A stretch of DNA of 64,000 nucleotides from the NCBI GenBank assembly GCA_965226545.1, contig OZ245364.1, positions 2,600,612 to 2,664,611 of the forward strand, written 5' to 3'. The translations under genes were made by a program, and so were the position numbers. Shown in pieces: positions 9,209 to 54,759 of the stretch (positions within the stretch are counted from its first letter, which is position 1; each line of letters begins with the position of its first letter). Under the pieces are notes generated by a model. That model was not told the DNA's origin and searched no databases. It saw nothing but the letters and a program-made list of their open reading frames with translations. This DNA comes from Candidatus Poriferihabitaceae bacterium. GTDB lineage: Bacteria; Pseudomonadota; Gammaproteobacteria; Arenicellales; Poriferihabitantaceae.

Positions 9209-9320
9209 TTCGAAAATCCTCAATCATTCAAAGGTGATTAAAAAATTAAACATCAACCAAACATCAACGATGTTAATCTCGAATTAAATTCAACATTTAA
9301 TCAAATGTTAAATCAACCAT

Positions 9321-9350
9321 AAAAAAGCGCACGGACGTTAATGTCGGCGC
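9321..9350 (-). terminator. Probable terminator of the ald-denV-SLOG transcript
   Basis: Minus strand reads gcgccgacattaacgtccgtgcgc (imperfect hairpin) followed by ttttttat. Confidence 0.45.
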
Positions 9351-9427
9351 ATGCTTGCGACCGCAAACTGTAATCGTAGCACAACCCAACCCGCAAGCGA
9401 CGCCTTAACCCATGCGGTGTACGTCGC

Positions 9428-10147
9428 TTAATTGCCCGCCGCAATTTTATCCACCCAGTCGTCTTGTCGCGCTTTGCTTTGTTGCGGCTTGCCTTGTTGC
9501 GACTGGACTTGTTGCAAATATTGGACGCGCTTGGAGAATTTAATGGCTTTATCAAAATAGGCGCGCGCCTCATCGCCGCATTTCGCAACCAACGCTTCGA
9601 CATCACCCGCCGATTTAATGTTAACCATTTTGTCGTCGACGGCAAAATACACCCGCGACGACTTGCCTTGCGCAAGCATATTAAGCGCGTTGTTTAATGT
9701 GCCTTTGCTCTTGCCGTACCACAACATCAAGCCGTAATCGGCATCGCGACTCATCGCCGCGTCTTTTTGCGCGAAATAAGAAAAATCCTTGCGCGCGCCG
9801 TTCGCTTCAATCGCGCACACTTCCCAATCGCCGACATTATTACGGCATTTATCGCCCATGCAATAAACGACGACGTTTTTGTAACTTTCGCGGTGCATAA
9901 ACGTCTGCACCGCCTTATCCGCACCGCCGGCGTCGCCAACCAACACGGTGAATTGCTTGTCGATAATGCCGCGCAAATTTTCACACACGGTCTCGTTCAA
10001 ATACACCATCGCACGCGAGCCGCTGATGAAAATTTTTTTGTTGTTGGCAAGAGATTTCATCGTCAACATCACCGTCGCGCCAACGCACTTCCCACTGACC
10101 GCATCGCGCGCCGTCAAGATAACCGTCGGTCGAATCATCGGAATCAT
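9428..10147 (-). CDS. SLOG / DUF2493-like Rossmann-fold protein with a Gln-rich C-terminal tail
   Basis: KKIFISGSR...VLVGDAGGADKAVQ...KDAAMSRDADYGLMLWYGKSKGTLNN matches the layout of the LOG/DprA-like (SLOG) superfamily as I recall it. The start is uncertain (ATG 10147, 10069 or 10060). GC is about 50%, below the genome's coding level. Confidence 0.4.
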   Translation of the reverse strand: MIPMIRPTVILTARDAVSGKCVGATVMLTMKSLANNKKIFISGSRAMVYLNETVCENLRGIIDKQFTVLVGDAGGADKAVQTFMHRESYKNVVVYCMGDKCRNNVGDWEVCAIEANGARKDFSYFAQKDAAMSRDADYGLMLWYGKSKGTLNNALNMLAQGKSSRVYFAVDDKMVNIKSAGDVEALVAKCGDEARAYFDKAIKFSKRVQYLQQVQSQQGKPQQSKARQDDWVDKIAAGN

Positions 10148-10183
10148 TTGGGATATGCGTCCAAACGCAATTCGGCTGTTCGC

Positions 10184-10606
10184 TCATCGGAGTAGCCGCC
10201 GCGCCGCGCTTTTTCTGTACCAATTCGGTTTCATATTAATTTTCTCGCGCAGACGTTTGCGGATGATTTTAAAATCCGCCATTTGCGGAGTCCAGTTTTT
10301 ATACAGCCCATTTTGCCTAAAAATTTCCGCAGGGAAGACGCGCGCACGGTCGGGGTTAAACCCGCGTCGTTTCATTTCATACACGAGTTTTTGATAACGC
10401 AAGTGCAGGTATTTTCCCTTGTCGTAGAAAAAATACACATGTCCCGCGTTTAAGCAAAATCGCTTTGGCACTTTGTCCGCTTGAAAACCGTGTTGGCTTT
10501 TGAGCGTACGCCGCAATGCGCCGGCGACCATAAAAATCTCGCGGTATTCGGCGATGAGATGCTGGTCGGTTAATTCACTCGGCGCAATGAGGTTAATGCG
10601 CGTCAC
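10184..10606 (-). CDS. denV: Pyrimidine-dimer DNA glycosylase (T4 endonuclease V family)
   Basis: (GTG)TRINLIAPSELTDQHLIAEYREI...NAGHVYFFYDKGKYL...RRGFN...KPNWY parallels T4 DenV [25 protein letters not shown]...GAGHVTFFYDK...KRGFN...RPTWY. The GTG start overlaps the ald stop (GTGA). GC is about 45% by eye. Confidence 0.85.
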   Translation of the reverse strand: MTRINLIAPSELTDQHLIAEYREIFMVAGALRRTLKSQHGFQADKVPKRFCLNAGHVYFFYDKGKYLHLRYQKLVYEMKRRGFNPDRARVFPAEIFRQNGLYKNWTPQMADFKIIRKRLREKINMKPNWYRKSAARRLLR

Positions 10607-11721
10607 TTTTTCAACGCATCCACCGCATCAACAAATTCATACCCCAACTCCTCGGCGACGCTTTGATAGGTGACCATGCCGGCATGCACATTCAAACCGT
10701 TGCGCAAATGCGGGTCGTCCAGCAACGCGCGTTTGGCGCCTTTGTTGGCGAGGTCGAGGGCGAATGGCAAGGTGGCGTTGTTTAGCGCATAGGTCGAAGT
10801 GCGCGGTACGCCGCCGGGCATGTTGGCGACGCAATAATGCACGACGCCGTCTACCACGAAGGTTGGCTCGGCGTGGGTGGTGGGTTTGGAGGTTTCGCAG
10901 CAGCCGCCTTGGTCGATGGCGACATCGACAATCACCGCACCGTGTTTCATTCGCTTGACCATCTCGGCGGTTACCAACTTGGGCGCTTCGGCGCCGGGAA
11001 TCAGCACGCCGCCGACCACCAAATCGGCGTCGAGTACATGGCGTTCGAGCGCATCGGCGGTCGAATACACCGTGTTGGTCGACCGCCCGAATTGCGCCCA
11101 ATGGCGTTCGAGGGCGGCGAGATTGTTGTCCAGCACCCAAACATCGGCGCCCATGCCGACGGCGATGTGCGTGGCGTGCGTGCCGACCACGCCGGCGCCG
11201 AGTATCACCACCTTGGCCGGGTCGACCCCGGGCACGCCGCCGAGCAACATGCCCAGCCCGCCGTGCGGTTGTTCGAGGCAATAGGCGCCGGCTTGCACCG
11301 ACATTCGCCCGGCGACTTTGGACATCGGCGCCAGCAACGGCAACCCGCCATGCGGCGAGGTGACCGTTTCATAAGCGACGCAGGTTGCGCCGCTGTCGAC
11401 CAATTCGCGGGTTTGCTCCGCATCCGGCGCAAGGTGCAGATAGGTGTACAGCAATTGCCCGGCGCGCAACATCGCGCGTTCGGACGCCTGCGGTTCTTTG
11501 ACCTTGATAATCATCTCGGCGGTCGCGAAAATTTCCGCGGCGGTGGGCGCAATGCGCGCGCCGGCCGATTGATAGGATTCGTCGCTTGCGCCGATGCCGA
11601 CGCCGGCATTGGTTTCCACCGCGACTTGATGGCCGTGCTTGACCATCTCGCGCACACTGGCCGGCGCCAAGCCGACTCGGTATTCGTGGTTTTTAATTTC
11701 TTTGGGTACGCCAATTTGCAT
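10603..11721 (-). CDS. ald: Alanine dehydrogenase
   Basis: MQIGVPKEIKNHEYRVGLAPASV... and the NAD-binding segment VVILGAGVVGTHA, at 372 aa. Confidence 0.9.
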   Translation of the reverse strand: MQIGVPKEIKNHEYRVGLAPASVREMVKHGHQVAVETNAGVGIGASDESYQSAGARIAPTAAEIFATAEMIIKVKEPQASERAMLRAGQLLYTYLHLAPDAEQTRELVDSGATCVAYETVTSPHGGLPLLAPMSKVAGRMSVQAGAYCLEQPHGGLGMLLGGVPGVDPAKVVILGAGVVGTHATHIAVGMGADVWVLDNNLAALERHWAQFGRSTNTVYSTADALERHVLDADLVVGGVLIPGAEAPKLVTAEMVKRMKHGAVIVDVAIDQGGCCETSKPTTHAEPTFVVDGVVHYCVANMPGGVPRTSTYALNNATLPFALDLANKGAKRALLDDPHLRNGLNVHAGMVTYQSVAEELGYEFVDAVDALKK

Positions 11722-12020
11722 AAATCAACCTCTTGTCCGTCGCAGTACGGTGGTGGTTAAACGAATGTTAGTCAATCGAATTAAATTTCGCATTAAACTT
11801 CGCATTAAAAATTGAATGCGGGGTTAATGTGATTTTAATGGAAGTGCAGGTTAAGGTTAATGGGTTAATGTAATTTTAAGTTAAGTTTAAGTTAAGTTTA
11901 ATTTAAATTAGTAACGCAAGCAAACCAATTATACGAATTTAATAAAGCGAATCATCGACCCAACCGCAGGCGAATTTTAACCAATGCCAACGGATGCAAA
12001 CGGCGCGTATAATCGCGGAC

Positions 12021-12527
12021 ATGCCAAACGCCGCACCTTCCGAACAGGTGGCGATTGTTGACGTCGCCGACCGTGTGATTGACAGCGCATCGCGCTTCGA
12101 TATGCGCGCGCAGCGGCGCATGCATCGCGCCAATTATATCCTGGTGTTCAACCGCAAGGGCGAATTGCTCGCCCAACGGCGCAGCGCAAACAAGGATGTG
12201 CATCCCGGGCGGTTGGATTTTGCGGCCGGCGGCGTCGTGCAATTCGGCGAGGAATATCACGCATCGGCGGTGCGCGAACTGCAAGAAGAGTTGGGCGTTG
12301 CGCCGCCGTTGGTCGAATGTTTCGATATCTGGTTTGAAGATGAAACCGACGCGCCGCCCAATCGACATTGGGGGCGGGTGTTTTCCTGCGTGCATGACGG
12401 GCCGTTTACATTGCAAGCCGCCGAAATCGTCGACGCGAATTTTATGCGCATCGACGATGCATTGGCGCATCCGTTGACCGATGTCACCCCCGACAGTCGG
12501 CTGGCGTTGCTCGCCCATTGTTTGTAA
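12021..12527 (+). CDS. NUDIX hydrolase
   Basis: Nudix box GGVVQFGEEYHASAVRELQEELGV. The alternative start is ATG 11994. Confidence 0.75.
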   Translation: MPNAAPSEQVAIVDVADRVIDSASRFDMRAQRRMHRANYILVFNRKGELLAQRRSANKDVHPGRLDFAAGGVVQFGEEYHASAVRELQEELGVAPPLVECFDIWFEDETDAPPNRHWGRVFSCVHDGPFTLQAAEIVDANFMRIDDALAHPLTDVTPDSRLALLAHCL

Positions 12528-12606
12528 TCTGCGCGCCGATTTTTTGCCGATTTTTCATGTCGATTTGATGTCGTTTTTTTATATCGATTTTTTATGCCGA
12601 TTTTTT

Positions 12607-13377
12607 ATGATACGCGCACATTCCATCAGCAAACATTTCGGCGGCGTGCATGCGGTCGATGATGTCAGCGTAACGATTGAAGCCGGCGCGATTACCGGGT
12701 TAATCGGCCCAAACGGCGCCGGCAAATCGACCTTGTTTAACATCATCGCCGGGTTGACGCCGCCGAGCGGCGGGCGGGTGTATTTGGACGGCGAAGACAT
12801 CACCGGACAAAAGCCGCATCAATTGTTTCACAAGGGGCTGCTGCGCACTTTCCAAATCGCGCATGAATTCGCCCAGTTGACCGTGCGCGAAAATTTAATG
12901 GTCGTGCCCGGCGCGCAACTCGGCGAACGTTTGGCGAGCAACTGGCTGCATCGCGCCAAGGTCGGCGCACAAGACGCCGACATTAATCGACGCGCCGAAT
13001 TCGTTATGGAATTTCTTAACCTCGCGCCGCTCGCCGACCAATTGGCCGGCGAATTGTCCGGCGGGCAAAAAAAACTTCTCGAACTCGGGCGCACAATGAT
13101 GGTCGACGCCAAAGTCGTGTTGCTCGACGAAGTCGGCGCCGGCGTCAACCGCACCTTGTTGCGCGACATCGGCGACGCCATCTTGCGCTTGAACCGCGAA
13201 CGCCATTACACCTTTTGCATGATTGAACACGACATGGATTTCATCAGCCGCCTGTGCGACCCGGTGATTGTCATGGCCGAAGGCGCGGTGCTTACAGTCG
13301 GCGCCATCGATGAAGTTAAAGCCAATGAACAGGTTATCGAAGCCTATCTCGGACGCGGCGCGGGGCGTGATGAGTGA
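12607..13377 (+). CDS. livG: Branched-chain/HAAT-family ABC transporter ATP-binding protein
   Basis: Start at MIRAHSISKHFGG. Walker A GPNGAGKST, signature LSGGQKKLLEL, Walker B VVLLDE. Confidence 0.8.
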   Translation: MIRAHSISKHFGGVHAVDDVSVTIEAGAITGLIGPNGAGKSTLFNIIAGLTPPSGGRVYLDGEDITGQKPHQLFHKGLLRTFQIAHEFAQLTVRENLMVVPGAQLGERLASNWLHRAKVGAQDADINRRAEFVMEFLNLAPLADQLAGELSGGQKKLLELGRTMMVDAKVVLLDEVGAGVNRTLLRDIGDAILRLNRERHYTFCMIEHDMDFISRLCDPVIVMAEGAVLTVGAIDEVKANEQVIEAYLGRGAGRDE

Positions 13378-13521
13378 GGTGAGGTGAAGTTAATTTATTT
13401 AATTTACTTAAGTAAATTAATTACTTAATTAAATTAAAGTGACTTATAAAAAATTAAAGTGACTTATAAAGTAAAGTAACTTAAGTTAAGTAAGTGACAT
13501 TAATAACTGAAACAATCAACA

Positions 13522-14256
13522 ATGAACCCCAACGATAAAACGCCAACCCCAACCCATTATCTGCTCGGCGAAAACATGAGCGGCGGCTACGGCGGCGCCG
13601 ACATTTTGCGCGATTGCACCATCGGTGTCGCGCGCGGCGAGATTGTCGTAATCGTCGGACCGAACGGCGCCGGCAAATCGACCGCAATGAAGGCGTTGCT
13701 CGGCATGATTCAATTGCGCCGCGGACGGGTGACGCTTGGCGGCGAAGACATCAGCGCGCTGTCGCCGCAGGCGCGGGTGGCGCGCGGCATCGCGTTTGTG
13801 CCGCAAACCGCCAATGTGTTTGTCGGCATGACGGTGCGCGAAAATTTGGAGATGGGCGCGTATCTGCGCAAGGATGATTATCGCGACACCATGGCGCGGG
13901 TGTTCGAATTGTTTCCGGCGTTGGCGCAAAAGCGGCGTCAATTGGCCGGCGAATTATCCGGCGGACAACGCCAACAAGTTGCGGTCGGGCGCGCGTTGAT
14001 GACCGAACCCGAAGTGTTGATGTTGGACGAACCAACCGCCGGCGTCTCGCCGATTGTCGTCGATGAATTATTCGAACGCATCCTGGCGGTGCGCAACACC
14101 GGCGTGGCCGTGTTGATGGTCGAACAAAACGCCCGCCAAGCGCTCTCGATTGCCGACCGCGGTTATGTGCTGGTGCTCGGACAAAACCGCCACACCGCCG
14201 CCGGCGCCGCCTTGCTCGCCGACCCCGAAGTGCGCAAATCGTTTCTCGGCGGTTAA
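13522..14256 (+). CDS. livF: Branched-chain/HAAT-family ABC transporter ATP-binding protein
   Basis: GPNGAGKST, LSGGQRQQVAVGRAL and LMLDEPTAGV. Confidence 0.8.
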   Translation: MNPNDKTPTPTHYLLGENMSGGYGGADILRDCTIGVARGEIVVIVGPNGAGKSTAMKALLGMIQLRRGRVTLGGEDISALSPQARVARGIAFVPQTANVFVGMTVRENLEMGAYLRKDDYRDTMARVFELFPALAQKRRQLAGELSGGQRQQVAVGRALMTEPEVLMLDEPTAGVSPIVVDELFERILAVRNTGVAVLMVEQNARQALSIADRGYVLVLGQNRHTAAGAALLADPEVRKSFLGG

Positions 14257-14499
14257 GTGGCGGCGGTTTGCGTTTATTATGCGTTGCGTTGTTTTAAGTT
14301 ACTTGAAGTTGCTTTTACTTGAAGTTGCTTGAACTTACTTTAATTTATTTTGCGTTACTTTTAGTTAAGCACAGTTAGTTAAGCACAGTCACTTTGATTT
14401 ATTTTTATTTTGTTTTGATTTTATTTATTTTGTTTTGATTAATATCATTTCGATAAACTCAATTTAATAAACCGATTTAACAAAACCAAGTTAACACCA

Positions 14500-15510
14500 A
14501 TGGATGTCTTAAACGCATTCGTACTGCTCGCCAACTTCATTATATTGCCGGCGTTAACCTACGGCGCGCAATTGGCGCTCGGCGCGCTCGGCGTGACGTT
14601 GGTGTATGCCGTGCTGCGCTTTTCCAACTTTGCGCACGGCGACACCATGGCGTTCGGTGCGATGACGACGATACTCGCCACATGGTGGCTGCAATCGCAC
14701 GGCGCATCGATTGCGCCGTTGCCGACCGCCTTGTTGGCGTTGCCGATTGGCGTGTTGGCGACCGGCGGCTTGTGCGTGTTGATTGACAAATGCGTGTATC
14801 GCCATTATCGCCGTCAACGAAGTCCGTCGGTGGTGTTTGTCATCGTCTCGGTCGGCGTGATGTTTGTGTTAAACGGCGTCGTGCGTTTTATCATCGGCCC
14901 GCAAGACCGCCAATTTGCCGACGGCGAAAGATACATCATCCGCGCGCGCGAATTTAAACAACTCACCGGCTTGGCCGAAGGGCTGACCATCAAAACCACT
15001 CAAGGCATCACCATCGTGCTGGCGGTGTTAATGGTCGCGCTGCTGTTTTGGTTTTTACAAAACACCCGCACCGGCAAAGCCATGCGCGCGTTTTCCGACA
15101 ACGAACAACTCGCCCGCCTGTCCGGCATCGACCCCAATCGCGTGGTGATGATTACCTGGTGGCTCACCGGCGCATTGGCAACTTTGGCCGGCGTGTTGTA
15201 CGGCTTGGATAAAAGTTTCAAACCGTTCACCTATTTCCATCTGCTGCTGCCGATGTTCGCCGCCGCCATCGTCGGCGGCATCGGCCGCCCAATCGGCGCC
15301 ATCGTCGGCGGCTTCATCATCGCCTTCTCCGAAGTAACCATCACCTACGCCTATAAAAAATTCCTCGCTTATCTGTTGCCGCCGGAATGGCGTCCCGAAG
15401 GCTTGGTGCAATTATTGTCCACCGATTACAAATTCGCCGTATCGTTCATCATCTTAGTGGTCGTGCTGCTGGTGCGCCCAACCGGCATTTTTCGCGGGCG
15501 GGTGATTTAA
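14500..15510 (+). CDS. livH: HAAT-family ABC permease
   Basis: 336 aa polytopic protein. FSNFAHGDTMAFGA and the GGIGRPIGAIVGGFII tail are typical of LivH. Confidence 0.75.
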   Translation: MDVLNAFVLLANFIILPALTYGAQLALGALGVTLVYAVLRFSNFAHGDTMAFGAMTTILATWWLQSHGASIAPLPTALLALPIGVLATGGLCVLIDKCVYRHYRRQRSPSVVFVIVSVGVMFVLNGVVRFIIGPQDRQFADGERYIIRAREFKQLTGLAEGLTIKTTQGITIVLAVLMVALLFWFLQNTRTGKAMRAFSDNEQLARLSGIDPNRVVMITWWLTGALATLAGVLYGLDKSFKPFTYFHLLLPMFAAAIVGGIGRPIGAIVGGFIIAFSEVTITYAYKKFLAYLLPPEWRPEGLVQLLSTDYKFAVSFIILVVVLLVRPTGIFRGRVI

Positions 15511-17301: not shown

Positions 17302-18516
17302 TTAACGCACGCGCACGGTGACGAATTCGCCGCCTTTAACTTCCTCTTCCTTATAGGAACCGTACACTTCGCCGACTTCGTTGAACTCGACGCCGGTGGC
17401 GCCGACATAATCAACATCACCGCCTTTGGCGAGAATCTTCAACGCCTTATCCAACTGCCCGGCGTAGATTTTGCGCCCCGGGGCGTTGGCGACTTGCATC
17501 ACCTTCGCTTGAATCGCGCCGCGTTCGGACGATTTTGCAGCCTGCATCGCCAGCAACAACAACGCCGCAGCGTCGTAGGATTCGGCGCGGAACGGGCCGT
17601 CGCCGTCCAAACCGTTTTTGTCGGCGAATTTATGGAAACGCTCGGTGGTTTTGTCTTCGCCGCCGGGACGCGTGCCGACTGCGCCGTTGAGTTCATCGCC
17701 GAATGCATCGGTCAGCGAATCGCCAATCATGCCGTCGCCAAACACGAATTTGTCGAACGCATCGGTGTCCAATGACGCCTGAATGATGCCCTTGCCGCCT
17801 TGGTCGAGATAGCCGAACACGGCCAAATGCGATGCGCCGGTGGTTGCCAATGCCGCGACTTCGGCGGAATAATCGGCGCGCCCGTCTTCATGCGCGACGC
17901 TGGCTTCGACCTTGCCGCCGAGCGATTCGAATGCATCGGTAAACGATTCGGCAAGCCCCTTGCCGTAGTCGCTGTTGGTGTAGGTGACGGCGATTTTTTT
18001 CACGCCGCGTTCCTTCATAATCTGCGCCAACACCTGCCCTTGACGCGCATCCGACGGTGCGGTGCGGAAGAAATAGCCTTTGTCGGCAATCGTCGACAAC
18101 GCCGGCGAAGTCGCCGACGGCGAGATAATCGCGACGCCGTTGGGCACCGCAACATTGTTGGCGATTGCGGTGGTTACGCCCGAACAATCGGCGCCCATAA
18201 TCGCGGCGACGCGGTCCGAGGTTACCAATCGTTCAGCCGCGGCGGTGGCGGCGGCGGCATCGACGCAAGTCGAATCGGCGCGCACCGAAGTCACAGTCGC
18301 GCCATCGAGCAAGCGACCGGACCGATTCACTTCGCTCATCGCCAATTCGGCGGAGGCGGCCATATCCGGGGTGAGCGATTCAATCGGCCCGGTAAAGCCG
18401 AGAATCACGCCGACCTTAATATCGTCGGCAAACGCCGTCGGCAGCAACAGCGCGCCAACGACGCACACCGCCGCCTTGCGCAAAGTGCACCGCCAGTTTT
18501 TGCTGATAACGTTCAT
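17302..18516 (-). CDS. Periplasmic ligand-binding protein (type 1 PBP, LivK-like)
   Basis: Start at MNVISKNWRCTLRKAAVCVVGALLLPTAFA, then DDIKVGVILGFTGP. GAGGA precedes ATG 18516. Confidence 0.75.
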   Translation of the reverse strand: MNVISKNWRCTLRKAAVCVVGALLLPTAFADDIKVGVILGFTGPIESLTPDMAASAELAMSEVNRSGRLLDGATVTSVRADSTCVDAAAATAAAERLVTSDRVAAIMGADCSGVTTAIANNVAVPNGVAIISPSATSPALSTIADKGYFFRTAPSDARQGQVLAQIMKERGVKKIAVTYTNSDYGKGLAESFTDAFESLGGKVEASVAHEDGRADYSAEVAALATTGASHLAVFGYLDQGGKGIIQASLDTDAFDKFVFGDGMIGDSLTDAFGDELNGAVGTRPGGEDKTTERFHKFADKNGLDGDGPFRAESYDAAALLLLAMQAAKSSERGAIQAKVMQVANAPGRKIYAGQLDKALKILAKGGDVDYVGATGVEFNEVGEVYGSYKEEEVKGGEFVTVRVR

Positions 18517-18646
18517 AATCAATTCCTCACAAAAGTAAACGGGGGTGGTTAAAAAAAGTGTTGGAAGTCGCCGGGCAACGGCGCGCCATCGCGGCAAAAC
18601 CCAATGCGGATGTCGTACAATGCCAAGCCGTTTTCCGAACGCGGCG

Positions 18647-18674
18647 ATTATACCCGCAATTGCCGCCGATGCAA
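18647..18674 (-). promoter_or_regulatory. Candidate sigma70 promoter for the binding-protein gene
   Basis: Minus strand reads TTGCAT - 16 nt - TATAAT. This would give a GC-rich leader of about 120 nt. Confidence 0.35.
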
Positions 18675-19079
18675 ACGAAACGCAATCGCTTCGATGTCCA
18701 ACCCGCCGCGTGCAAGTGGAGGTGGATTGCAATGAATATGAATATGAATTTGATTTTTAATTAAATTTAATTTTAATTTTATTTAATTTAATTCCATTCG
18801 CCGCCGCACTGTTTTGGGTTAATCTTTATTGTCGACAGTGGTCGGAAATCCTATTGCAATGCACATTTAACAATGCGCATTACGCTTTAACTTTTTTAGT
18901 TAACTTATTTATAGTTTGCCTTGATTGAATTAAGTTGCACACCGAATTTAATTTGCATTAGTTAAGTTGCACTTTTATTGTGACTGCAATGACGATGTTT
19001 ACAGTGCATACCGCACATACAACGTTTGATTACAGTTCACACAGTGATTAACCCTTCATTATTAAACGGAAAACCCGCG

Positions 19080-20135
19080 ATGAATTTTTACTGGCCGATG
19101 CGCCTGTCGTTGTTGTTGTATCTGGCGTTGCTTGCGTTGATTTCGGTGAATTTGGCGCAGTTGTTTCGCCTGCCGTTAATAGTCGTCGGCATTGCGCCGG
19201 GGATTGCGGCGATTGCATTGCTCGGCGCTTGGCTGTTTGGCGGCGCGCGACGCACCTTATTAACCTGCCTGTTAACCATCGGCACGTTCGGCTTGACCGC
19301 AGTTGCGGTGGTGTTGGCGTTGCCGGCGTGGCGGGTGATTGCCGGCGAACCGTCCGGCGCATCCGCCGGGCAAATGGCGCCGGTGTTTGCGGCCGCGCTG
19401 GCCTTGCATGCCTGCAATCTGTGGGTCGCCGCGGTCAACTCAGGCGAGCAGGAACAAAGCACCGAACGTCTCGCGCGATTGTTGTACGGCCCCGGCGCAT
19501 TGGCGTCGCTGATTACCGCGCTGATTTTATGCGCCGGCGCAACGTTGGGATTGGAATGGCTATCGACGCGCGGCGAACAATACGATGAATGGACGCGGCG
19601 ATTTTTACAGCGCGGCATCATCCCGCCGCTGACCGTAACGCTGTTTTTTTGGGGCGCGTTGTTGTTGTTTGGCAAAGCCTGGAACAACAGTTATCTGCGC
19701 CGCACCATCAAACATTGGCCGAACGCCGCCCCGCCCAGTTTGGCCGCATTTGCGGTCGGGTTGGATGTGCTGAGCGTCAACGCCGCCGCGATTGACCGCG
19801 GCATGCATCTGCTGTGGCAACGCCACGAAGAATCCTATTTGCTGCCGCGCTATCTCAGTTGGGCTGTGCCGATACTCGGCTTCATCGGCACGGTGCTCGG
19901 CATCTCGCTGGCCGCCGAAGGCATTCGCCGCATCATCGGCTCGGACGCCGGGCTGGCGAGTTTATCCGGCGATTTGGACGGCGCGATTGCGCCGCTCGGC
20001 ATCGCATTCGACACCACCTTGGTGGCGTTGTCGCTGAGCGTTGTGCTGATGTTGTTGTTGGTGTTGACGCAACGCAGCGAACAACGGCTGCTGGCCAATC
20101 TCGAACGCCGATTGCGCGAAACCGCCGGTGGCTGA
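19080..20135 (+). CDS. Divergent MotA/TolQ/ExbB-family channel protein with about 5 extra N-terminal TM helices
   Basis: The C-terminal third, PILGFIGTVLGISLAAEG...APLGIAFDTTLVALSLSVVLMLLLVL, parallels this window's TolQ (VGLFGTVWGIMNSF...APGISEALIATAMGLFAAIPAV). The start is taken at ATG 19080; the ORF-track start 19026 is a TTG. Confidence 0.6.
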   Translation: MNFYWPMRLSLLLYLALLALISVNLAQLFRLPLIVVGIAPGIAAIALLGAWLFGGARRTLLTCLLTIGTFGLTAVAVVLALPAWRVIAGEPSGASAGQMAPVFAAALALHACNLWVAAVNSGEQEQSTERLARLLYGPGALASLITALILCAGATLGLEWLSTRGEQYDEWTRRFLQRGIIPPLTVTLFFWGALLLFGKAWNNSYLRRTIKHWPNAAPPSLAAFAVGLDVLSVNAAAIDRGMHLLWQRHEESYLLPRYLSWAVPILGFIGTVLGISLAAEGIRRIIGSDAGLASLSGDLDGAIAPLGIAFDTTLVALSLSVVLMLLLVLTQRSEQRLLANLERRLRETAGG

Positions 20136-20649
20136 GCAGCCTCGACAAGTTGCGCCGGACGACGACAACAACGCGCCGATGATGGCGATTTTCGGCGGCG
20201 TGTTTGGGTTGCTGATGGTGTTTTTGGTGGTGGTCAATTTATATTCAGACGCCGCCCAACGCGAACGTCTCGAAAAAGGCGGCGAAGACGGCTTGTATCG
20301 CATCGAGCGGTTGGACGGCGGCAGCGGCTTTATCGTCATCACCTTCCCCGGCGAATTGCGCATCATCGAACTCGGCTTGAGCATCGCCTCGACAAAAATC
20401 TGCGCGCCCGGCGGCGCGTTTGTTAATTATGCGCGGCGCATCTATGAAGGCGACCGTGACCAATTGGTGTTTTTTATGTTGGAAGGCAGCGTGCCGACCA
20501 TGGCGATTGCGCGCGAATGTTTGCGCCAACTGTGGCCGCAAACGCCGCTGACCATCGGCTGGGTGATTGCCGACAACGAACTGCTCAAATCGGTTGCGCT
20601 CAACGACATCCCCAACTACATCCGCGAATACGTCGAGGAATCTCGATGA
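20128..20649 (+). CDS. ExbD/TolR-like bitopic membrane protein, no Asp in the TM
   Basis: Short acidic N-tail, one TM ([21 protein letters not shown]), then [13 protein letters not shown]...[21 protein letters not shown], which resembles the ExbD periplasmic domain. GTG 20128 overlaps the upstream stop; the alternative start is ATG 20179. Confidence 0.45.
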
Positions 20650-22508
20650 AACGCGAAGCCGCGCGCAATGCATTGCCGGATTTTGCCGGCGTCGCCTTGG
20701 TCGATATTCTCGCCAACGGTTTGGCGATGTTGATTATTTTAATCGCCTTGAGCATCAGTGCGCGCAGCGAACACGAACAACGCACCACCGCGCAAGTCGA
20801 GGAAGTCGAGACCATGATGAGTCGACGTTTTAGCACTTCGCTGGTGCTGAACAGCCTCGCCGCCAGCCCGCCGGCGCAACTGCATGATTACGACAACTCG
20901 CCGATAGACCAGATTCTCGACCCGCAAATCCTGCCGATTATCGAACTGCATCGCGGGTTTGTGCGCGAATATTATCGCGGCACGGTGTGGACGCGCGCCG
21001 AATTGTTGCGCGAACCGAATGCGATGGACGCTTGGCTGCTCGAGTTTGACGAACAACGCAAAAACCGTTTGCGCGTCGACATCTACGACATCACGCAATT
21101 TTATTTGGTGATGTCGATTTTGCGCGACCACGATGTGCCGACACGCCATTGGCATTTTCTCGATGGCGGACTCGGTGCACTGGCCGCCGCCAACTGCCCG
21201 CCGGGCGTCGCCGCCAAAGATTGCAAAGGCGAAGGCGAACAAGGCGCATTGGCAAAATTAGCCGGCGAAAGCGGCGGCGGGCAAGGTGATGGCGATGGCG
21301 ATGGCGATGGCGATGGCAACGGTGAAGGCGGCGGACAAGGCGAAGGTCAATGGCCGCCGCAGGATGATGCACAAGGGCAAGGCGGGCAAGGCGCCGGCGG
21401 TGCGCCGTTTCCCGGCGGTGCCGCATTTGGCGATGTCGGCGGAATGCCCGGCGGCGTGCCCGGTGGACAACCGGGCGGGCAACCCGGCGGTGCCGCCGGT
21501 GGCATACCGGGCGGCATGCCCGGCGGATTGCCGGGCGGCGAACCGATGCTCGGCGGCGGCAGTTTCCCCAACGCCCGCCCCTTGCGCGCGCAACAATTGC
21601 CGGCCGATTTAAGCGCGTTTGGCTTGCTCGGCAGCGATTTGGATGCGCCGGTGCAGTTCCGCCGCTCGACGCCGGAATCGCTGCAATCCGCACAGCCACT
21701 CGACGATTTACAAGGCGAAGCGCCAAGCATCGCCGAAGTGCTGGCGGTGTTGTTGACCTATCTCGAACGATTGCAATTGACGTTGGAATTGGGCGGCTCG
21801 CCAACTTCGTTATTGGAAAACTTCAACGCCTATCTGCGCGCCGCCTTCGCCAACCCGCCGCCATTGCGCGGCGCCTCCGCCGAAATCGTCGATGACTTGG
21901 CGGCGCAATTAACCGATGCAACCCCGTCGCTCAGCGATTGGGATAAACCGCAGGCAACCTTAACCATCCGCCATCGCGCGCCGTTAATTGACACCGCCGA
22001 CGCCGCCGATGATGACGATGACAACGCCGCCACCCCGGCGCAGTTAATCGTTGCGCCGAACCGTCGATTGCAAGCCGTCATCGTTGCCGGCGGCGCACAA
22101 CCCCCGCCGCCGGCGGCGCGCCCGACCTTGCATCTCAACGCGCATCCGGATGTGTGGCGCGGGTTGTTGGTGGCGTTGGAACCGGATTCGATTTTATTGA
22201 TGCCGCCGGTGCAGCACGGCGCGACGCCATCGAACACAACGCAATTAAAATGGCGCGCACTCGCCTACATCGCCCCGACCTTTGACGACTTCATCGTCGG
22301 CTTCGCCTATGCCGCCATCGATGCCGACGGCAATCTGCAAATCGGCGGCGACGACAATCGCGTGCGATTGGACGGCGGCGCCTTGCGCACGCCGCATCTC
22401 AGCGCAAACTTCGGCGCACGCGGCTGGCTGTGGTCGTTGTATGTTGTATTGCTGCTCGGCTTGTTCGGCGCGGTTCTCCTCACCCGCCGATTATTCGCGC
22501 GCGGTTGA
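20646..22508 (+). CDS. Giant ExbD/TolR-like protein: N-terminal TM with Asp, ExbD-like domain, Gly/Pro/Asp-rich linker, about 300-aa unknown domain, C-terminal TM
   Basis: Start at [35 protein letters not shown], with an ATGA overlap onto the upstream stop. [24 protein letters not shown] is ExbD-like. Low complexity spans aa 194-307. The C-terminal TM is [20 protein letters not shown]. Confidence 0.45.
21285..21326 (+). repeat. In-frame (GGYGAT)n hexamer repeat encoding (GD)n
   Basis: ggtgat ggcgat ggcgat ggcgat ggcgat ggcaac ggtgaa. Confidence 0.9.
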
Positions 22509-22552
22509 ATGATGTTGATGGGTTGATGCGGGGCTTGCACAGTAATTTGTGC

Positions 22553-22583
22553 AATGTTTATTTAATGTTTATTTAATGTTTAT
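22553..22583. repeat. Tandem 11-mer (aatgtttattt) x 2.8
   Basis: aatgtttatttaatgtttatttaatgtttatg, in the spacer before the FGE-fold gene. Confidence 0.85.
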
Positions 22584-22676
22584 GCATTACGCATGCACCG
22601 TTCGACAGTACACATGCAACCCACACGCAACTTTATTAACGCGCACACACTTCCCAACACCGCAACAACCACTTAA

Positions 22677-24218
22677 ATGAACGCTTATAAACTCGCCGCG
22701 ATTGGTTTGTTGGTGTTGCTTGGCTTGGTCGGCTGGGTCACGCGGTTTGGCGCCGGTGAATTGCAAAGTGACACCCGCACCATCCAACTCGGTTTTGCCG
22801 CGGCGCAAACCGCGCGCGCCAAACCATTGGACGAGGCCACGCTCGATGCATTGGAACGCGGTTATTTCTCGCGCGAATTATCCGCGCGACTCGACCGTCC
22901 GCCGCATCGCGCGCAACTCGATGAATTTTGGGTTGACCGTTGCGAAGTGCGTCAAATTGATTTCGAACGTTTTGTCGCGTGGCGCGAACAAAACGGTGAA
23001 GCCGCGCCGCGCAGCACCTCGAGCGGACATCGCATCGCCGGCTTGTTGCATTCCCCGGCCAGCGGCGTCGATGCCGCCGACGCCGAGTTGTATTGCCAAT
23101 CGGCCGGCGGACGCCTGCCGTGGGCGGAGGAACTCGAGGCATTGGCAAGCGGGCGCAACGGGCGGCTGTATCCGTGGGGCGATTCGTTTGACGGCTCGTT
23201 TTGGCCGTATCAAGATGCGCATCGCAACGCTTCGCAACCGTGCGCGATTCATCCGCGCGCGTCCTCGCCCGAAGGCGTGCATGATTTGGCAAACAACGTG
23301 ATGGAATGGAGTCGCGGGCGGCGCGATGCGCATCCGCGCGACCGTCGTCCGGGCGCGCACGGTGCGCCGCCGATTCGCGCGCGCGGGCGGGCGTTGTATG
23401 CATTGTCGTCCGCGTGGCTGCCGATTGGCGCGCACACCCGCAGCCATCATCTCGGCTTTCGTTGCGCATATAACCAACCGCCGCGCGCGCCGTTTGCCTG
23501 GGGCGCGCGCGTTGACGCCGCGCGAATCGCCGGCGGCGATTATCCGCTTGGCGTGCCGGCTGATTTTCCGCTGGCGCGCGTCGCCGTGTTGTTGCCGCAG
23601 GCGCAACACCGCGAAGCGCGCCGCATGATTGGCGCAACCAAACGCGCGCGCCGTTTGCGCGTCGGCGTATGCGAAGTCAGCCGCGCCGAATACGCCGCAT
23701 TTTTGCGCCATCCGCTGGCACAACTCGGGCTGTTTGCCAATCAACACGAACCGCGCGGCGAAAATTACACGCCGCACAATTGGCAAAGCCAACGGCAAAA
23801 TCCAACCTTGCCGGTCAGCGGCGTCAACTGGTGGGCTGCCGATGCCTTCGCCCGCTGGGCCGGCGGACGTCTGCCGCGGCGCGATGAATGGCAACTGCTC
23901 GCCGCCGGCAAGGACGCGCGCGACTATCCATGGGGCGATGAATATTCGCCGGCGTTTGCCGCCGCCGGCATCGAACACGGCGTGCATGCTTGCGCAACCA
24001 ACGCACTCGACCAAAACGCGGACGGCGTGTTTGATTTGGCCGGCAATGTCTCCGAATGGACGCGCTCAGTGGTCGCCGAACGCGGCGATTACGCCGCCTG
24101 GGTGCAAGGCGGCAACCCGCGCCTGCCGCCGCAAACCGCCGCGCGTAGCGTGTTTGGCAGATTGGTGCCGCTCAATCACCAATCACCAAGCATCGGTTTT
24201 CGCGTGGTGTTTGATTAA
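22677..24218 (+). CDS. Membrane-anchored protein with two tandem FGE-sulfatase (SUMF1/GldK-like) domains
   Basis: N-terminal TM LAAIGLLVLLGLVGWV. Domain 1: DRCEVRQIDFERFV, GGRLPWAEELE, YPWGD, GVHDLANNVMEWS, HLGFRCA. Domain 2: CEVSRAEYAAFL, GGRLPRRDEWQ, DYPWGDE, GVFDLAGNVSEWT, IGFRVVF. Confidence 0.7.
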   Translation: MNAYKLAAIGLLVLLGLVGWVTRFGAGELQSDTRTIQLGFAAAQTARAKPLDEATLDALERGYFSRELSARLDRPPHRAQLDEFWVDRCEVRQIDFERFVAWREQNGEAAPRSTSSGHRIAGLLHSPASGVDAADAELYCQSAGGRLPWAEELEALASGRNGRLYPWGDSFDGSFWPYQDAHRNASQPCAIHPRASSPEGVHDLANNVMEWSRGRRDAHPRDRRPGAHGAPPIRARGRALYALSSAWLPIGAHTRSHHLGFRCAYNQPPRAPFAWGARVDAARIAGGDYPLGVPADFPLARVAVLLPQAQHREARRMIGATKRARRLRVGVCEVSRAEYAAFLRHPLAQLGLFANQHEPRGENYTPHNWQSQRQNPTLPVSGVNWWAADAFARWAGGRLPRRDEWQLLAAGKDARDYPWGDEYSPAFAAAGIEHGVHACATNALDQNADGVFDLAGNVSEWTRSVVAERGDYAAWVQGGNPRLPPQTAARSVFGRLVPLNHQSPSIGFRVVFD

Positions 24219-24540
24219 GCGGGATGGATGTGACGATTGATGTGTCAATTGATTTGACCATCGACACTTTGGGTTGTGGCGGCGATGCGGATTTGTTTTT
24301 GTTTAGTTGATTTCAGTTTTACTTTCGACTTGTTTTTGTTTTACTGCATACCGTTATATTGTTATGTCGTTTAATACTGTTTGGTTTTACTTAACCGAAT
24401 CAAGTAACAGCGAATCAAGTAACTAACTGCACAACGAATCGAATAACGAAGTGCATAATGAAGTGCATAGCATAATGAAGTGCATAGCATAACGAAGTGC
24501 ATAACAAGTCGAGACAATCAATGCATCGACGACCACACAT

Positions 24541-26931
24541 TCAAAACAACCCTTCGGCATTATTTTCAGGCGGCGGTTGGTCGACCGATTCGTCGCGGTT
24601 GTCGAGCGGTATTTCCGGCTGGCTGCCGGCGATGTAGTATTCGACATACGCATCCGGGTCGCCGATGACGGTCGGTTCGCCGCTGGTTTTGTTAATTAAT
24701 TGCGTAACAATATTCGCCGGCGGTTCGAAAGGTTGTTCCGGCATTTTTTTCAGCACATCGCGCATGTACTCGACCCAAATCGGCAAGGCCGCGGACGCGC
24801 CGGATTCGCGCCGTCCCAAATTCGACGGTTCATCGAAGCCGACAAACACCGTGGTCACGATGTCGCGGTTAAACCCGGAAAACCACGCATCGCGAAAATC
24901 GTTGGTCGTGCCGGTTTTGCCGGCGAGGTCGTCGCGCCCCAAGGCGCGCGCGCGTTGTCCGGTGCCGGTGAGAATCACTTGGCGCAACATATCGCTGACA
25001 ATAAACGCGTTTTGCGCCGAGATGACTCGGTCTTGTTCATCGACATGCGGATTGGCGCGCGGCAACAAATGCGCGTTTTCACAATCGCTGCACCAATCGC
25101 CGCTTAACTCAATCGCATTGCCTTCGCCGTCGGTGATGCGCGCGATTAAATACGGGCGGACGCGCTTGCCGCCGTTGGCAAACACCGCAAACCCGGCGGC
25201 CAAATCCAGCGGGGTGACGCTTAAACTGCCGAGCGCCAGCGAAAAACTGCGCGGCAATTTATCGCGGTCGAAACCGAATTTGGCGAGATGATTAACCGTG
25301 GCGTCGATGCCGATGGCGCGCAACAAACGCACCGAAACCAAATTGAGCGAACGGCTCAACGCTTCGCGCAAACGAGTCGGCCCGTAAAACTTGCGCCCGA
25401 AATTTTGCGGGCTCCAAATGCCTTCGAGATTGTCCTCGATGACAATCGGCATCGCGCTGACCAAACTGCCGGCGGTAAAACCGTTGTCCAACGCGGCCGA
25501 ATAAATAAACGGTTTGATGTTCGAGCCCGGTTGACGCCGCGCTTGCGTCGCGCGATTGAACTTGCTGAGATAATAATCAAACCCGCCGGTCAAGGCGAGA
25601 ATCGCGCCGCTGTTTGGGTCCATGCTGACCAAGGCGCCGGAGATTTCCGGCATCTGCGCCAACTCCCATTCGCCGAGTTGATTGCGCGCGACATACACCA
25701 CATCGCCAATCGCGGCCACTTCATCGCTCGAGGTCGGCGCGCTGGTGGTGCGATTGGGCGTCAAGTAGGCGCGCGCCCATTGGATGTAACGCCATTTGAT
25801 GTCGATGGTTTTGTCGGTGCGCGTAACCGCGCGCAATTGGCGTTCGCTGTTGTCGAGAACAATCGCCGGAATCAATTCGCGGCTCGACGGATAATCGCGC
25901 AACAACTCGGTCGGCGATTTGGATTCGAGTTCGCTCGGCGCAATGTTGCCGACCGCGCCGCGAAATCCGTGCCGACGGTCATACGCCAACAACCCGGCGC
26001 GCAACGCGGCCTCGGCGTGGGTTTGATAATCGCTGTTGACGGTGACTTCGACTTCATAGCCGAGTTCATAAACGCGCTCGCCGAAACGGTCGACCATCAT
26101 CCGCCGCACCAACTCGGCGACAAACGGCGCTTGGGATTCGCCTTCGACCATGTGGCGATTGGCGGTGACCGGCGCGGCCAACGCGGTTTGATAACTGAGC
26201 GCGTCAATCTTGCCCTGTTCATGCATGCGCTTTAATACATAGGCGCGACGTTGCGCGGCGCGTTTCGAGTTGGTGATGGGGTTGTCGCGCGACGGCGCCT
26301 TGGGCAGCCCGGCAAGCATCGCCACCTGCGGCACGCTTAAGTTTTTCATCGCCACGCCGTAATAGACCCGCGAGGCCGCGGCGAAGCCGTATGAACGATG
26401 CCCGAGAAAAATTTTGTTGAGATACAACTCGAGAATTTCATCCTTGGTCAACGCGCGCTCCATATTAAAAGCCAACAGGATTTCGCGCAACTTGCGTTTA
26501 TAGGTGCGCTCCGGCGTCAGGAAAAAATTGCGCGCGACCTGCATCGTAATCGTGCTGGCGCCTTGCGCGCGCGATTGGCTGCGCAAATTGCTGACCACGG
26601 CGCGCGCGATGCCGCGAAAATCGACGCCGCTGTGATGATAAAAACGATCGTCTTCGGTTACCAAAATCGCGTCGATTAACAACAGCGGCGTTTCATCCAG
26701 CGACACCGGAATGCGCCGTTCATTGCCGTACTGCCCAATCAAATCTCCGTCGGCGCTGTAAATGCGCAGCGGAATGTTAAGCGGCACGCGGCGAATCTCA
26801 TCGATGGTCGGCAAGCCCGGCAACAGAGTCGCGACATAGACCGCAACGCCGACCGCGCACAAGGTCGCCGGCGGCACCAACCGCAACAGCGTGCGAAACA
26901 AAAACCGCAGGATTGCCAACAACACTCGCAT
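24541..26931 (-). CDS. mrcA: Penicillin-binding protein 1A (bifunctional transglycosylase/transpeptidase)
   Basis: Start at MRVLLAILRFLF. GT51 motifs EDDRFYHHSGVD and GASTITMQVARN. Transpeptidase motifs RQPGSNIKPF and KTGTTND. Confidence 0.9.
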   Translation of the reverse strand: MRVLLAILRFLFRTLLRLVPPATLCAVGVAVYVATLLPGLPTIDEIRRVPLNIPLRIYSADGDLIGQYGNERRIPVSLDETPLLLIDAILVTEDDRFYHHSGVDFRGIARAVVSNLRSQSRAQGASTITMQVARNFFLTPERTYKRKLREILLAFNMERALTKDEILELYLNKIFLGHRSYGFAAASRVYYGVAMKNLSVPQVAMLAGLPKAPSRDNPITNSKRAAQRRAYVLKRMHEQGKIDALSYQTALAAPVTANRHMVEGESQAPFVAELVRRMMVDRFGERVYELGYEVEVTVNSDYQTHAEAALRAGLLAYDRRHGFRGAVGNIAPSELESKSPTELLRDYPSSRELIPAIVLDNSERQLRAVTRTDKTIDIKWRYIQWARAYLTPNRTTSAPTSSDEVAAIGDVVYVARNQLGEWELAQMPEISGALVSMDPNSGAILALTGGFDYYLSKFNRATQARRQPGSNIKPFIYSAALDNGFTAGSLVSAMPIVIEDNLEGIWSPQNFGRKFYGPTRLREALSRSLNLVSVRLLRAIGIDATVNHLAKFGFDRDKLPRSFSLALGSLSVTPLDLAAGFAVFANGGKRVRPYLIARITDGEGNAIELSGDWCSDCENAHLLPRANPHVDEQDRVISAQNAFIVSDMLRQVILTGTGQRARALGRDDLAGKTGTTNDFRDAWFSGFNRDIVTTVFVGFDEPSNLGRRESGASAALPIWVEYMRDVLKKMPEQPFEPPANIVTQLINKTSGEPTVIGDPDAYVEYYIAGSQPEIPLDNRDESVDQPPPENNAEGLF

Positions 26932-53082: not shown

Positions 53083-53853
53083 CTATTGAATGTTTTGCTC
53101 GATGCGTCGCAGCCGCGTTTTGGCCGGCGTTGCCACTTGATGCGCCGGGAAGCGCGACAAGATGTCGCGGAAAGTCGCGGCGGCATCGTCGTATGCGCCC
53201 ATGTCGTATTGCACATAACCGATTTTAAGCATCGCCTCCGGCACCCGCTGGCTTTGCGGATAACGCGTTACCACGGTGCTGAAGCCTTTGAGCGCGTCTT
53301 CGAATTTGCGATTGACATAACGCGCTTCGGAAATCCAATAATACGCGTCGTCAGCCAATTGCCCTTCGGGCCAAGTGTCGGCGAGTTGTTGAAACGAATT
53401 AATCGCCTCTTGATAACGCCCGCCTTTAAGCAAGTCGAACGCGCGGTCATACGCCTGTTGTTCCTGCAGCGACACCGCCTGCCCGCCGCGCGAATTGCTC
53501 GGCGTCTCCACCGATGCGCTTGTGCCGCCGGTTGCGCGCGTGCCGCTGGCGCTCGGCGTGATGCGCAAATTGCGCTCGACGCGCACCATCCGCCGGTCGT
53601 AATCCTCGAACAAATTGCGCTGACGAATGTCGGCCGCTTCGACCTCAAACTGCATCTCTTCGATGGCGTTGCGTTGGCGTTTTAATTCCTCCTTCAAATC
53701 GGTTAAATCATCCAACGCGCGCACCGAGTTGCCGCCGAACGACGCGCCGTCGCCCGACCCCGAAAAACTCGCGCAACCGGCCAGCGATAATGACAACGAC
53801 AACCACAACGCCGACCAAACGCCCGCGCGCAAAAATAATTTAATGATGCTCAT
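53083..53853 (-). CDS. cpoB: Cell-division coordinator CpoB (YbgF), Tol-Pal associated
   Basis: Signal/lipobox-like N-terminus, coiled coil, then the TPR segment DDAYYWISEARYVNRKFEDALKGF...YPQSQRVPEAMLKIGYVQYDMG. Confidence 0.85.
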   Translation of the reverse strand: MSIIKLFLRAGVWSALWLSLSLSLAGCASFSGSGDGASFGGNSVRALDDLTDLKEELKRQRNAIEEMQFEVEAADIRQRNLFEDYDRRMVRVERNLRITPSASGTRATGGTSASVETPSNSRGGQAVSLQEQQAYDRAFDLLKGGRYQEAINSFQQLADTWPEGQLADDAYYWISEARYVNRKFEDALKGFSTVVTRYPQSQRVPEAMLKIGYVQYDMGAYDDAAATFRDILSRFPAHQVATPAKTRLRRIEQNIQ

Positions 53854-54582: not shown

Positions 54583-54759
54583 CGCGGTAAGTTTGGATGA
54601 GTGTCGGGGATGAATGTCGACGATGAATTGGAATGAATGTCGGGTGCGGACGTTTACGGTTACGTTTTGGTTTACGTTGGCGGTGATTTTAACTGTTAAC
54701 GAGACGCGCGACAACAAAACGCATCACCATAAACATTGCAGTACACATTAAATTACGCA

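Follow-up and report, generated by a model that had tools for sequence, protein, structure and literature searches.

A candidate MotA/ExbB-class envelope machine with a tandem FGE-fold protein, encoded by a conserved four-gene cassette in apparent sponge and coral symbionts

To our knowledge, motors of the MotA/ExbB type fall into only a handful of functional classes, namely the flagellar stators and the Ton, Tol, Agl, GldLM and Zorya systems. Operons in which one channel gene is accompanied by two ExbD paralogues exist. The locus considered here lies in a stretch of 64,000 nucleotides (nt) of contig OZ245364.1 from Candidatus Poriferihabitaceae bacterium (assembly GCA_965226545.1, positions 2,600,612 to 2,664,611), which in its whole length is referred to as the window. 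Four genes at 19080-24218 of the window, named P1 to P4 in 5′ to 3′ order, had been singled out in an original prediction as an envelope module made of an ExbB/MotA-like channel, two ExbD/TolR-like partners and a tandem FGE-sulfatase-fold protein, and all four open reading frames (ORFs) are present on the + strand (Table 1). With somewhat better than even confidence, we read P1-P4 as jointly forming an inner-membrane machine that belongs to the MotA/ExbB/TolQ ("5:2 motor") class and has a periplasmic output.

In regard to the described systems, the module resembles ExbB-ExbD and TolQ-TolR in having an apparent PF01618-type channel with threonine-bearing last two helices, overlapping operon genes, and N-in single-pass partners with an acidic residue in the membrane and a small predicted periplasmic alpha/beta domain. 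Unlike ExbB and TolQ, P1 has five extra N-terminal transmembrane (TM) helices and a short cytoplasmic loop; unlike ExbD and TolR, P2 and P3 are invisible to the PF02472 profile, and P3 extends to 620 amino acids (aa) with a second, C-terminal membrane anchor. The module also differs from the Ton and Tol systems by the lack of a TonB/TolA-type transducer or an outer-membrane partner and by an obligatory fourth component with the FGE fold. The parallel drawn originally, with GldL/GldM-GldK/GldN (PorLMKN) of Bacteroidota, holds as an analogy, since that system, like the one proposed here, couples the genes of an ion-driven motor in the inner membrane with that of a non-catalytic FGE-sulfatase-fold protein, and the long periplasmic arm of a single-pass subunit links the two. 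It does not extend further: P4 has no lipoprotein signal, is signal-anchored in the inner membrane and reaches 33.7 bits against the GldK model TIGR03525 (cut-off 350), P1 and P3 match no GldL/GldM profile, a GldN equivalent and nearby genes of the type IX secretion system are missing, the hosts are mostly labelled Gammaproteobacteria, and the protonatable residue (Asp, ExbD-style) is placed on the single-pass subunit and not on a GldL-type subunit. A relative of the type IX secretion system was therefore rejected, on the GldK score, the absence of a lipobox and the absence of GldL/GldM matches.

Likewise, the AglR-AglQ-AglS proteins of Myxococcus gliding combine one TolQ-like channel protein with two different TolR-like single-pass proteins, but no Glt-type gliding genes accompany the module, its partners are much larger or more divergent, and it includes an FGE-fold component. 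TolQ-like genes paired with heterologous trans-pore-helix vWA proteins were proposed in 2025 (Mol Biol Evol, PMC12204202); these also show an unlike single-pass pair beside a TolQ-like gene, with a conserved Asp in the N-terminal helices, in place of TolR/ExbD. In contrast to them, P2 and P3 are devoid of vWA, most lineages retain the acidic residue in only one of the two, an FGE-fold gene is always there as the fourth, and the ecological range is very narrow. A broad survey of MotAB proteins (PMC12505986) mentions neither sulfatase-fold partners nor sponges. No named system matching P1-P4 was found in Pfam, NCBIfam, PADLOC or PHROGs, and literature searches returned no description of the module, in agreement with the initial impression that the combination fits no described system.

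Judged from its sequence, P1 is a very divergent member of the MotA/ExbB/TolQ superfamily with five extra N-terminal helices. A hydropathy scan gives about eight TM segments with both termini inside; residues 1-161 form the additional five-segment N-terminal block, which is without a known family, and residues about 179-351 the divergent core, in which just ~60 residues separate core helices one and two and 21 residues follow the final TM helix. The window copy matches PF01618 over residues 247-342 with E=0.017 and 15.3 bits, below the gathering cut-off of 22.9, though all 12 of 12 diverse relatives match the same family (E<0.1, with 5.4e-6 as the best value), in each case within the C-terminal core and with no other family recurrent, so that the ExbB/MotA-like assignment stands at the level of the family. 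Among 556 database relatives, four have a precomputed PF01618 match and one is named MotA/TolQ/ExbB by NCBI; the P1-like protein of one distant variant also matches PF01618 weakly. The motifs GFIGTVLGI (T271) and APLGIAFDTTL (D311, T312, T313), located in the two final TM helices, show no variation among 12 diverse members, and their GTV and FDTT parts are retained in distant variants. At the corresponding places the TolQ encoded in the window has GLFGTVWGI and APGISEALIAT, and this TolQ does contain both segments, YVGLFGTVWGIM and VAPGISEALIATAMGLFAAI, that the prediction had aligned by eye with P1.

P2 belongs to a family of 192 proteins, named "hypothetical" in RefSeq and without a Pfam domain. 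It consists of a short acidic N-terminal tail (DDDNNAP in the window, EENNAP in relatives), one TM helix (residues 18-36) and a periplasmic alpha/beta domain (residues 60-150), with two invariant cysteines, C92 and C131. Public gene calls begin at ATG 20182, right at the TM helix, and give 155 aa; because the acidic motif upstream of this codon is conserved, reading EENNAP in 80 loci, GTG 20128 is the likelier start. Many of the P2-family database entries are probably truncated at the N-terminus. In the AlphaFold2 model the periplasmic domain, with predicted local distance difference test (pLDDT) values of 84-94, follows the strand/helix order b-b-b-a-b-a-b, and a Foldseek search placed it next to ExbD 8vgd_B (prob 0.89, TMt 0.70, root-mean-square deviation (rmsd) 2.9 A, 83 columns, E=0.2), 8p9r_A (TMt 0.69) and TolR 5by4 (TMt 0.46; E 0.2-1). 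Alignment of 84 P2 sequences with ExbD/TolR by hhalign gave a weak match (P=0.003), confined to the helix region and in the correct register, with P2 E-x-N-N-A-P-M-M-A on TolR E-I-N-I-V-P-L-L-D and the acidic position of P2 and P3 on D23 of TolR; with shallow alignments hhalign was uninformative. At the position of the ExbD aspartate, P2 carries Ala in 72 of the 80 loci examined, the window included, and Glu in the other eight, which are basal, as well as in three of three distant variants. Six of the eight Glu-bearing loci read E(K/R)NNAPM(V/I)EIFGG (Oxydemutatoraceae, Porisulfidus), and the remaining two, L076 and L077, read DDAN(S/G)APMVEIFGG with the same Glu, which aligns exactly with the ExbD/TolR Asp of E-I-N-V-x-P-L-I-D-V.

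P3 is likewise called "hypothetical" in RefSeq, and none of its 222 listed relatives has a Pfam domain. Hydropathy and charge place both of its ends in the inner membrane and its bulk in the periplasm. Two confident domains appear in its AlphaFold2 model (pLDDT about 90), separated by a linker with pLDDT of about 33, and the predicted strand/helix order of the N-terminal domain matches that of P2. The Asp at the ExbD-Asp position was found in 75 of 75 loci and in four distant members (SLIDI, SLVDV). The DNA of the linker is built of tandem repeats at 21288-21317 and 21411-21545 (GATGGC x5; 36/72-nt units), and co-occurring strains of the ENA sample ERZ25073868 have P3 of 610, 614 and 618 aa, compared to 620 aa for the window copy, so the length of the linker varies among members of one population. 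A profile of the P3 N-terminus gathered just 133 clusters in 1.84 billion representative proteins, almost all of 500-770 aa. Foldseek with the full-length model returned only noise (e.g., phage tube proteins, prob<0.05, rmsd about 15 A), hhalign gave nothing for P3 against ExbD or for P2 against P3, and neither the P2 nor the P3 profile reached an ExbD, TolR or MotB chain among the PDB sequences.

The membrane helices with their acidic position are the strongest argument that P2 and P3 may both be regarded as ExbD/TolR-like. The predicted ExbD/TolR layout thus stands in part: the PF02472 profile failed to recognise either protein, while the structural match of P2, the hhalign register and the acidic residue, invariant in P3, speak for it. 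Both proteins are probably ExbD/TolR-like in their mode of action, as remote homologues and not as demonstrable Pfam members, because PF02472 was never matched and the P3 profile stays within its 133 clusters.

As originally proposed, P4 is a tandem FGE-sulfatase-fold protein, matching PF03781 with E=5.9e-48 over two stretches that correspond to two domains of the C-type-lectin-like fold (residues about 84-266 and 320-513). No lipobox cysteine was found among 70 P4-homologue N-termini, all of which are hydrophobic helices. The catalytic, copper-binding Cys pair of FGE is in neither domain, and no CxxxxC occurs in 69 aligned family members; domain 2 has no Cys beyond the GGN motif, and domain 1 only the structural GFRC Cys. 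Alignments of P4 to FGE, OvsA and EgtB structures stop short of the catalytic segment. Four cysteines of domain 1 (C89, C140, C189, C263), conserved across 69 homologues, look structural. Scores against the NCBIfam models of EgtB, SenA and PvdO lie far under their cut-offs, and since the Cys pair is absent as well, P4 is a non-FGE, probably ligand-binding C-type-lectin-like module tethered to the inner membrane. A true FGE was rejected on the missing catalytic pair.

Conservation of the cassette was followed in a species-level scan (one genome per species, 185,579 species) that yielded 152 P1 relatives, of which the best 80 were examined. The order P1-P2-P3-P4, adjacent and on one strand, is kept in 73 of these 80 genomes, and a contig end cuts five of the remaining seven; the co-conservation of the four genes on which the prediction had laid weight extends to distant variants as well. 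In the other two, L074 and L075 (Ca. Porisulfidus; 7887-14585), P1-P3 are followed directly by gatA and gatB and P4 is not adjacent. An insertion-sequence-type transposase lies about 1.1 kb upstream of P1 in L074. Identities across the cassettes amount to 37-66% for P1, 47-82% for P2, 28-52% for P3 and 35-66% for P4. Clustering of neighbouring ORFs gave 45 different families upstream and 44 downstream and no fifth conserved gene, so only the cassette itself is conserved.

Three genomes, labelled Thermodesulfobacteriota, Poriferihabitaceae and Gammaproteobacteria (one each), carry P3 and P4 fused in a single ORF of 1138-1176 aa (L053 9396-12878, L061 9258-12788, L069 9258-12674), and such a fusion was also called as one 1118-aa protein by an independent gene caller. 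The fusion junction runs from the C-terminal TM helix of P3 through an 11-residue basic loop into the anchor helix of P4, and the spacer between P3 and P4 is missing there. These fusions provide Rosetta-stone evidence that P3 and P4 would act jointly, and their junction supports a topology in which the C-terminal helix of P3 and the anchor helix of P4 form an inner-membrane hairpin. In view of these fusions and of the conserved synteny, chance adjacency of the four genes was rejected.

The gene order persists around distant relatives of P3 (E about 1e-21 to 1e-27), as a MotA-like protein, a protein of about 180-200 aa, a P3-like protein and then one to three FGE genes. The variants L086 (4715-10715), L087 (9244-12838) and L097 (3463-6341) differ in these FGE genes, and two or three FGE-fold genes are carried by such variants. 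In one of their FGE proteins a thioredoxin domain is inserted between the two FGE domains. Proteins of a second type begin with a long N-terminal region, which precedes one TM helix and the only FGE domain, at the C-terminus. Trypsin_2, Trypco2 and AAA genes come after the module in L086. In a group of loci labelled Azotimanducaceae/Pseudomonadales (L026-L066), a divergent Ser/Thr kinase gene stands upstream in 16-24 loci, and the downstream gene encodes a TonB-dependent receptor in 9-17 loci or a TPR protein in 14-16, with examples at L026 6814-7836 and 13317-16622 and at L037 12760-14004. These recurrent neighbours may reflect lineage synteny or a functional link.

In regard to the hosts, 79 of the 80 examined records are metagenome-assembled genomes (MAGs) and one is Thioalkalivibrio sp. 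HK1. Sixteen bear candidate names coined for sponge symbionts (Poriferihabitaceae, Spongiihabitans, Porisulfidus), which occur in sponge genome notes, and the Amphimedon symbiont AqS1 also carries the module. Most of the remaining isolate series (SB06xx, COS, STY, Plut, LS_SOB, HK1) are probably sponge or coral MAG sets. All 80 records are genomes of the uncultured-symbiont type, and the module seems to be restricted to sponge and coral symbionts, which belong to several orders. Only seven relatives were found among 241 million records of JGI metagenomes, and none among 2.9 million viral contigs. A mobile or phage element was rejected, given the housekeeping character of the examined flanks and the absence of PHROG matches for P1-P3. 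Five MAGs are labelled Nitrospirales, Myxococcota, Alphaproteobacteria, Spirochaetales and Thermodesulfobacteriota; cross-phylum transfer of the cassette is possible and unproven, because the flanking genes did not confirm these labels. Two whole cassettes, L019 and L067, are present in the same Alphaproteobacteria-labelled MAG (CBDBIK01 contigs 8 and 9), with P1 64% and 47% identical to that of the window, which suggests either paralogous cassettes or a mixed bin.

The described architecture of the window locus, with overlapping genes on one strand followed by a 168-nt repeat spacer, was reproduced in full. The junction of P1 and P2 reads GGTGGCTGA, the GTG start of P2 lying 8 nt inside P1, and that of P2 and P3 reads CGATGAA, where the start of P3 overlaps the stop of P2 (ATGA). 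The AT-rich spacers and the housekeeping neighbours reported on both sides also agree with our data: GC content is 0.40 at 18500-19250, 0.44-0.48 at 24000-24750 and about 0.6 inside the P1-P4 genes, and the module is flanked by a Liv-type ABC transporter upstream, identified with the backing of Pfam marks, and by PBP1A-like, aroK and aroB genes downstream. The Liv flank is common to only four loci. Besides the repeat between P3 and P4 (Table 1), the spacers hold tandem repeats of a TTTAA unit (18732-18793) and of the 17-nt GCATAATGAAGTGCATA x3 (24407-24509). A weak stem-loop occurs at 22535-22554 in the P3-P4 spacer and a single sigma-70-like site at 18887-18915 in the upstream spacer; since the promoter/terminator scan found sites no more numerous than in shuffled sequence, this site is given as a position only and not as promoter evidence. 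Elsewhere in the window, at 53-60 kb on the minus strand and beside ruvAB, lies a complete canonical Tol-Pal cluster (TolQRA-TolB-Pal-CpoB), and the P1-P4 module therefore comes on top of the usual envelope motors and does not replace them. A YebC-family gene is found at 61051-61800.

Table 1. Features of the P1-P4 locus and of the Tol-Pal region, in window coordinates
Feature	Residues	Window positions	Strand	Remarks
Upstream spacer		18733-19079	+	AT-rich, GC about 0.40; short tandem repeats
P1		19080-20135	+	351 aa
P2		20128-20649	+	173 aa from GTG 20128
P3		20646-22508	+	620 aa
P3 N-terminal TM helix	16-34	20691-20747	+	invariant Asp20 at 20703-20705
P3 periplasmic alpha/beta domain	about 75-195		+	invariant H80, H102, RHWHF (168-171), C184, C193
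P3 disordered Gly/Pro/Asp-rich linker	196-335	21231-21650	+	140 residues
P3 C-terminal helical plus beta-sandwich domain	336-590		+	
P3 C-terminal TM helix, basic tail	about 591-619	22416-22502	+	
P3-P4 spacer		22509-22676	+	168 nt, AT-rich; repeat AATGTTTATTT x2.8 at 22553-22583
P4		22677-24218	+	513 aa
P4 signal-anchor helix	6-24	22692-22748	+	no lipobox
CpoB-like TPR protein		53083-53853	minus	
Pal (OmpA domain)		54043-54717	minus	
TolB		54760-56223	minus	
TolA		56229-56966	minus	
TolR		about 56990-57400	minus	
TolQ		57403-58131	minus	PF01618 E=1.5e-37
RuvB		58506-59627	minus	
RuvA		59689-60405	minus	

Topology prediction, a follow-up already proposed with the prediction, gave the N-in/C-in arrangement of P1, the inner-membrane location of both ends of P3 and a P4 without a lipobox, and the positive-inside charge distribution places all large domains of P1-P4 in the periplasm. 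If the four proteins work as a motor-class machine, P1 would be the ion-conducting outer ring, presumably a pentamer, and the N-terminal helices of the single-pass P2 and P3 would form the axle in the ring centre. The protonatable residue would be Asp20 of P3, probably touched by the invariant Thr271 and Asp311-Thr312-Thr313 of P1. Because Ala has replaced the acidic Glu of P2 in the lineage of the window, the axle would probably be an asymmetric P2:P3 pair. Ion flow could then drive rotation or conformational cycling of P3, whose flexible Gly/Pro linker and C-terminal domain would lead back to the second membrane helix, paired with the anchor of P4; through this pairing, the tandem non-catalytic FGE-fold domains would receive the work on the periplasmic side of the inner membrane. 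P4, in turn, may bind or handle a periplasmic or envelope ligand, for example a glycan or a peptide. Since the module is confined to lineages of sponge and coral symbionts, our guess is that the output would serve life inside the host, such as envelope or surface remodelling or ligand capture.

Several results weigh against such a machine. The window P1 stays under the Pfam gathering score, and a profile made only from the P1 family reaches no motor chain in the PDB, nor ExbB or TolQ of E. coli, against which a local profile of the P1 core was likewise not significant. PF02472 is unmatched, even at E<=10, by P2, P3 and 10 of their divergent or distant relatives. The Foldseek E-values of P2 are 0.2-1, and the model of P3 has no significant PDB neighbour, its ExbD-likeness consisting of the helix motif and the predicted strand/helix order; the P3 N-terminal profile halts without reaching any ExbD among the representative proteins searched. 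Finally, nothing ties the module to an outer-membrane partner.

Part of the evidence would also suit other explanations, two of which centre on P4. The proteins could form a periplasmic sensing or signalling complex, with P4 as a ligand sensor, like the kinase-fused FGE domains, and P1-P3 as a gated channel or scaffold relaying the signal, and the top PDB and PHROG matches of P4 do include kinase-associated FGE-like domains (7spq ToxD, E=3e-10; phrog_18508 "kinase"). The Ser/Thr kinase gene divergently upstream in the Azotimanducaceae/Pseudomonadales loci points the same way, yet it is limited to that one group of related genomes and is found neither in the window nor in most loci. None of P1-P4 has a cytoplasmic output domain, and an invariant Asp in the membrane together with the Thr motifs is the hallmark of an ion-coupled motor, for which reasons we regard a sensor as unlikely, even if the invariant His/Cys cluster of P3 could bind a metal or a ligand. 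The same His and Cys residues, together with the thioredoxin domain inserted in the P4-like protein of one distant variant, would suit an enzyme-centred system, in which P4, as an oxidase of the FGE/EgtB/PvdO type, would have its substrate in the periplasm and P1-P3 would supply energy, protons or metal. NCBIfam models of SenA and EgtB (E=8e-16 and 3e-13), as well as PvdO, indeed match over the FGE-fold region. However, every enzyme-family score is far under its cut-off (58 vs 420; 50 vs 360), none of 69 family members has the FGE Cys pair, and the iron-binding domain of EgtB/SenA is absent, judging from the established make-up of these families and from the single-domain matches, which makes an enzyme rather improbable.

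An energiser of the Ton type, in which P3 would unite ExbD and a TonB-like arm in one chain, extend to the outer membrane and there drive a TonB-dependent transporter or a different outer-membrane protein, would account for the long Gly/Pro-rich linker, which recalls the TonB spacer, and for the gene of a TonB-dependent receptor (Plug plus barrel) that immediately follows P4 in 9-17 loci. We give this explanation a similarly small chance, because the last TM helix of P3, with its basic tail, brings the protein back to the inner membrane, because three genomes encode this final helix and the P4 anchor within one polypeptide, and because P3 has no TonB_C or TolA domain; furthermore, the receptor is not adjacent in the window, where the genes bear out its reported absence, or in most lineages. 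Least probable, and in our view very unlikely, is an anti-phage or envelope-breach defence system like Zorya. Sponge symbionts are rich in defence systems, one distant variant adjoins Trypsin_2/Trypco2/AAA genes typical of conflict systems, and ZorA/ZorB is likewise a divergent MotA/MotB-type pair in a non-motility role, but the weak match of P1 to the ZorA profiles of PADLOC (E=3.7e-4) covers only the PF01618 stretch, i.e., the shared MotA core. P1 has no long ZorA-type tail after its last TM helix, a ZorB peptidoglycan-binding domain and the ZorC/D/E effectors are missing, as are a nuclease, helicase or other cytoplasmic effector, and P2-P4 have no PADLOC match, in line with the reported lack of Zorya effectors beside the module. 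In addition, the module lies outside defence islands, its examined neighbourhoods are of a housekeeping kind (Liv, PBP1A and aro here; thiC/thiG and gatA/gatB elsewhere), it spans whole lineages instead of being patchy, and none was seen in viral contigs.

Returning to the inner-membrane machine, a wider proposal can be put forward as a tentative one, which we consider possible and hold with clearly less confidence than the machine itself. P1-P4 may represent an unrecognised class of ion-driven envelope machines, with a MotA/ExbB ring, an asymmetric ExbD-like axle pair and a lectin-like FGE output in the inner membrane, which would have evolved in, and spread horizontally among, the sponge and coral symbionts of several gammaproteobacterial orders and possibly other phyla, and which would have a role in host interaction, such as envelope remodelling or masking or the capture of host-matrix glycans.

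Each new class of these motors has shown another way to spend membrane potential outside the cytoplasm, and the module, if it is a motor, would add a class with a lectin-like FGE fold at its output end, held at the inner membrane. P2 and P3, half of its proteins, carry no family annotation at all, and ready hypotheses for structural and mutational work are offered by the naturally occurring fusions of P3 with P4 and by the replacement of Glu with Ala in P2. For the symbionts themselves, the module is a candidate symbiosis factor, concrete and testable, in a field of mostly correlative lists of enriched genes.

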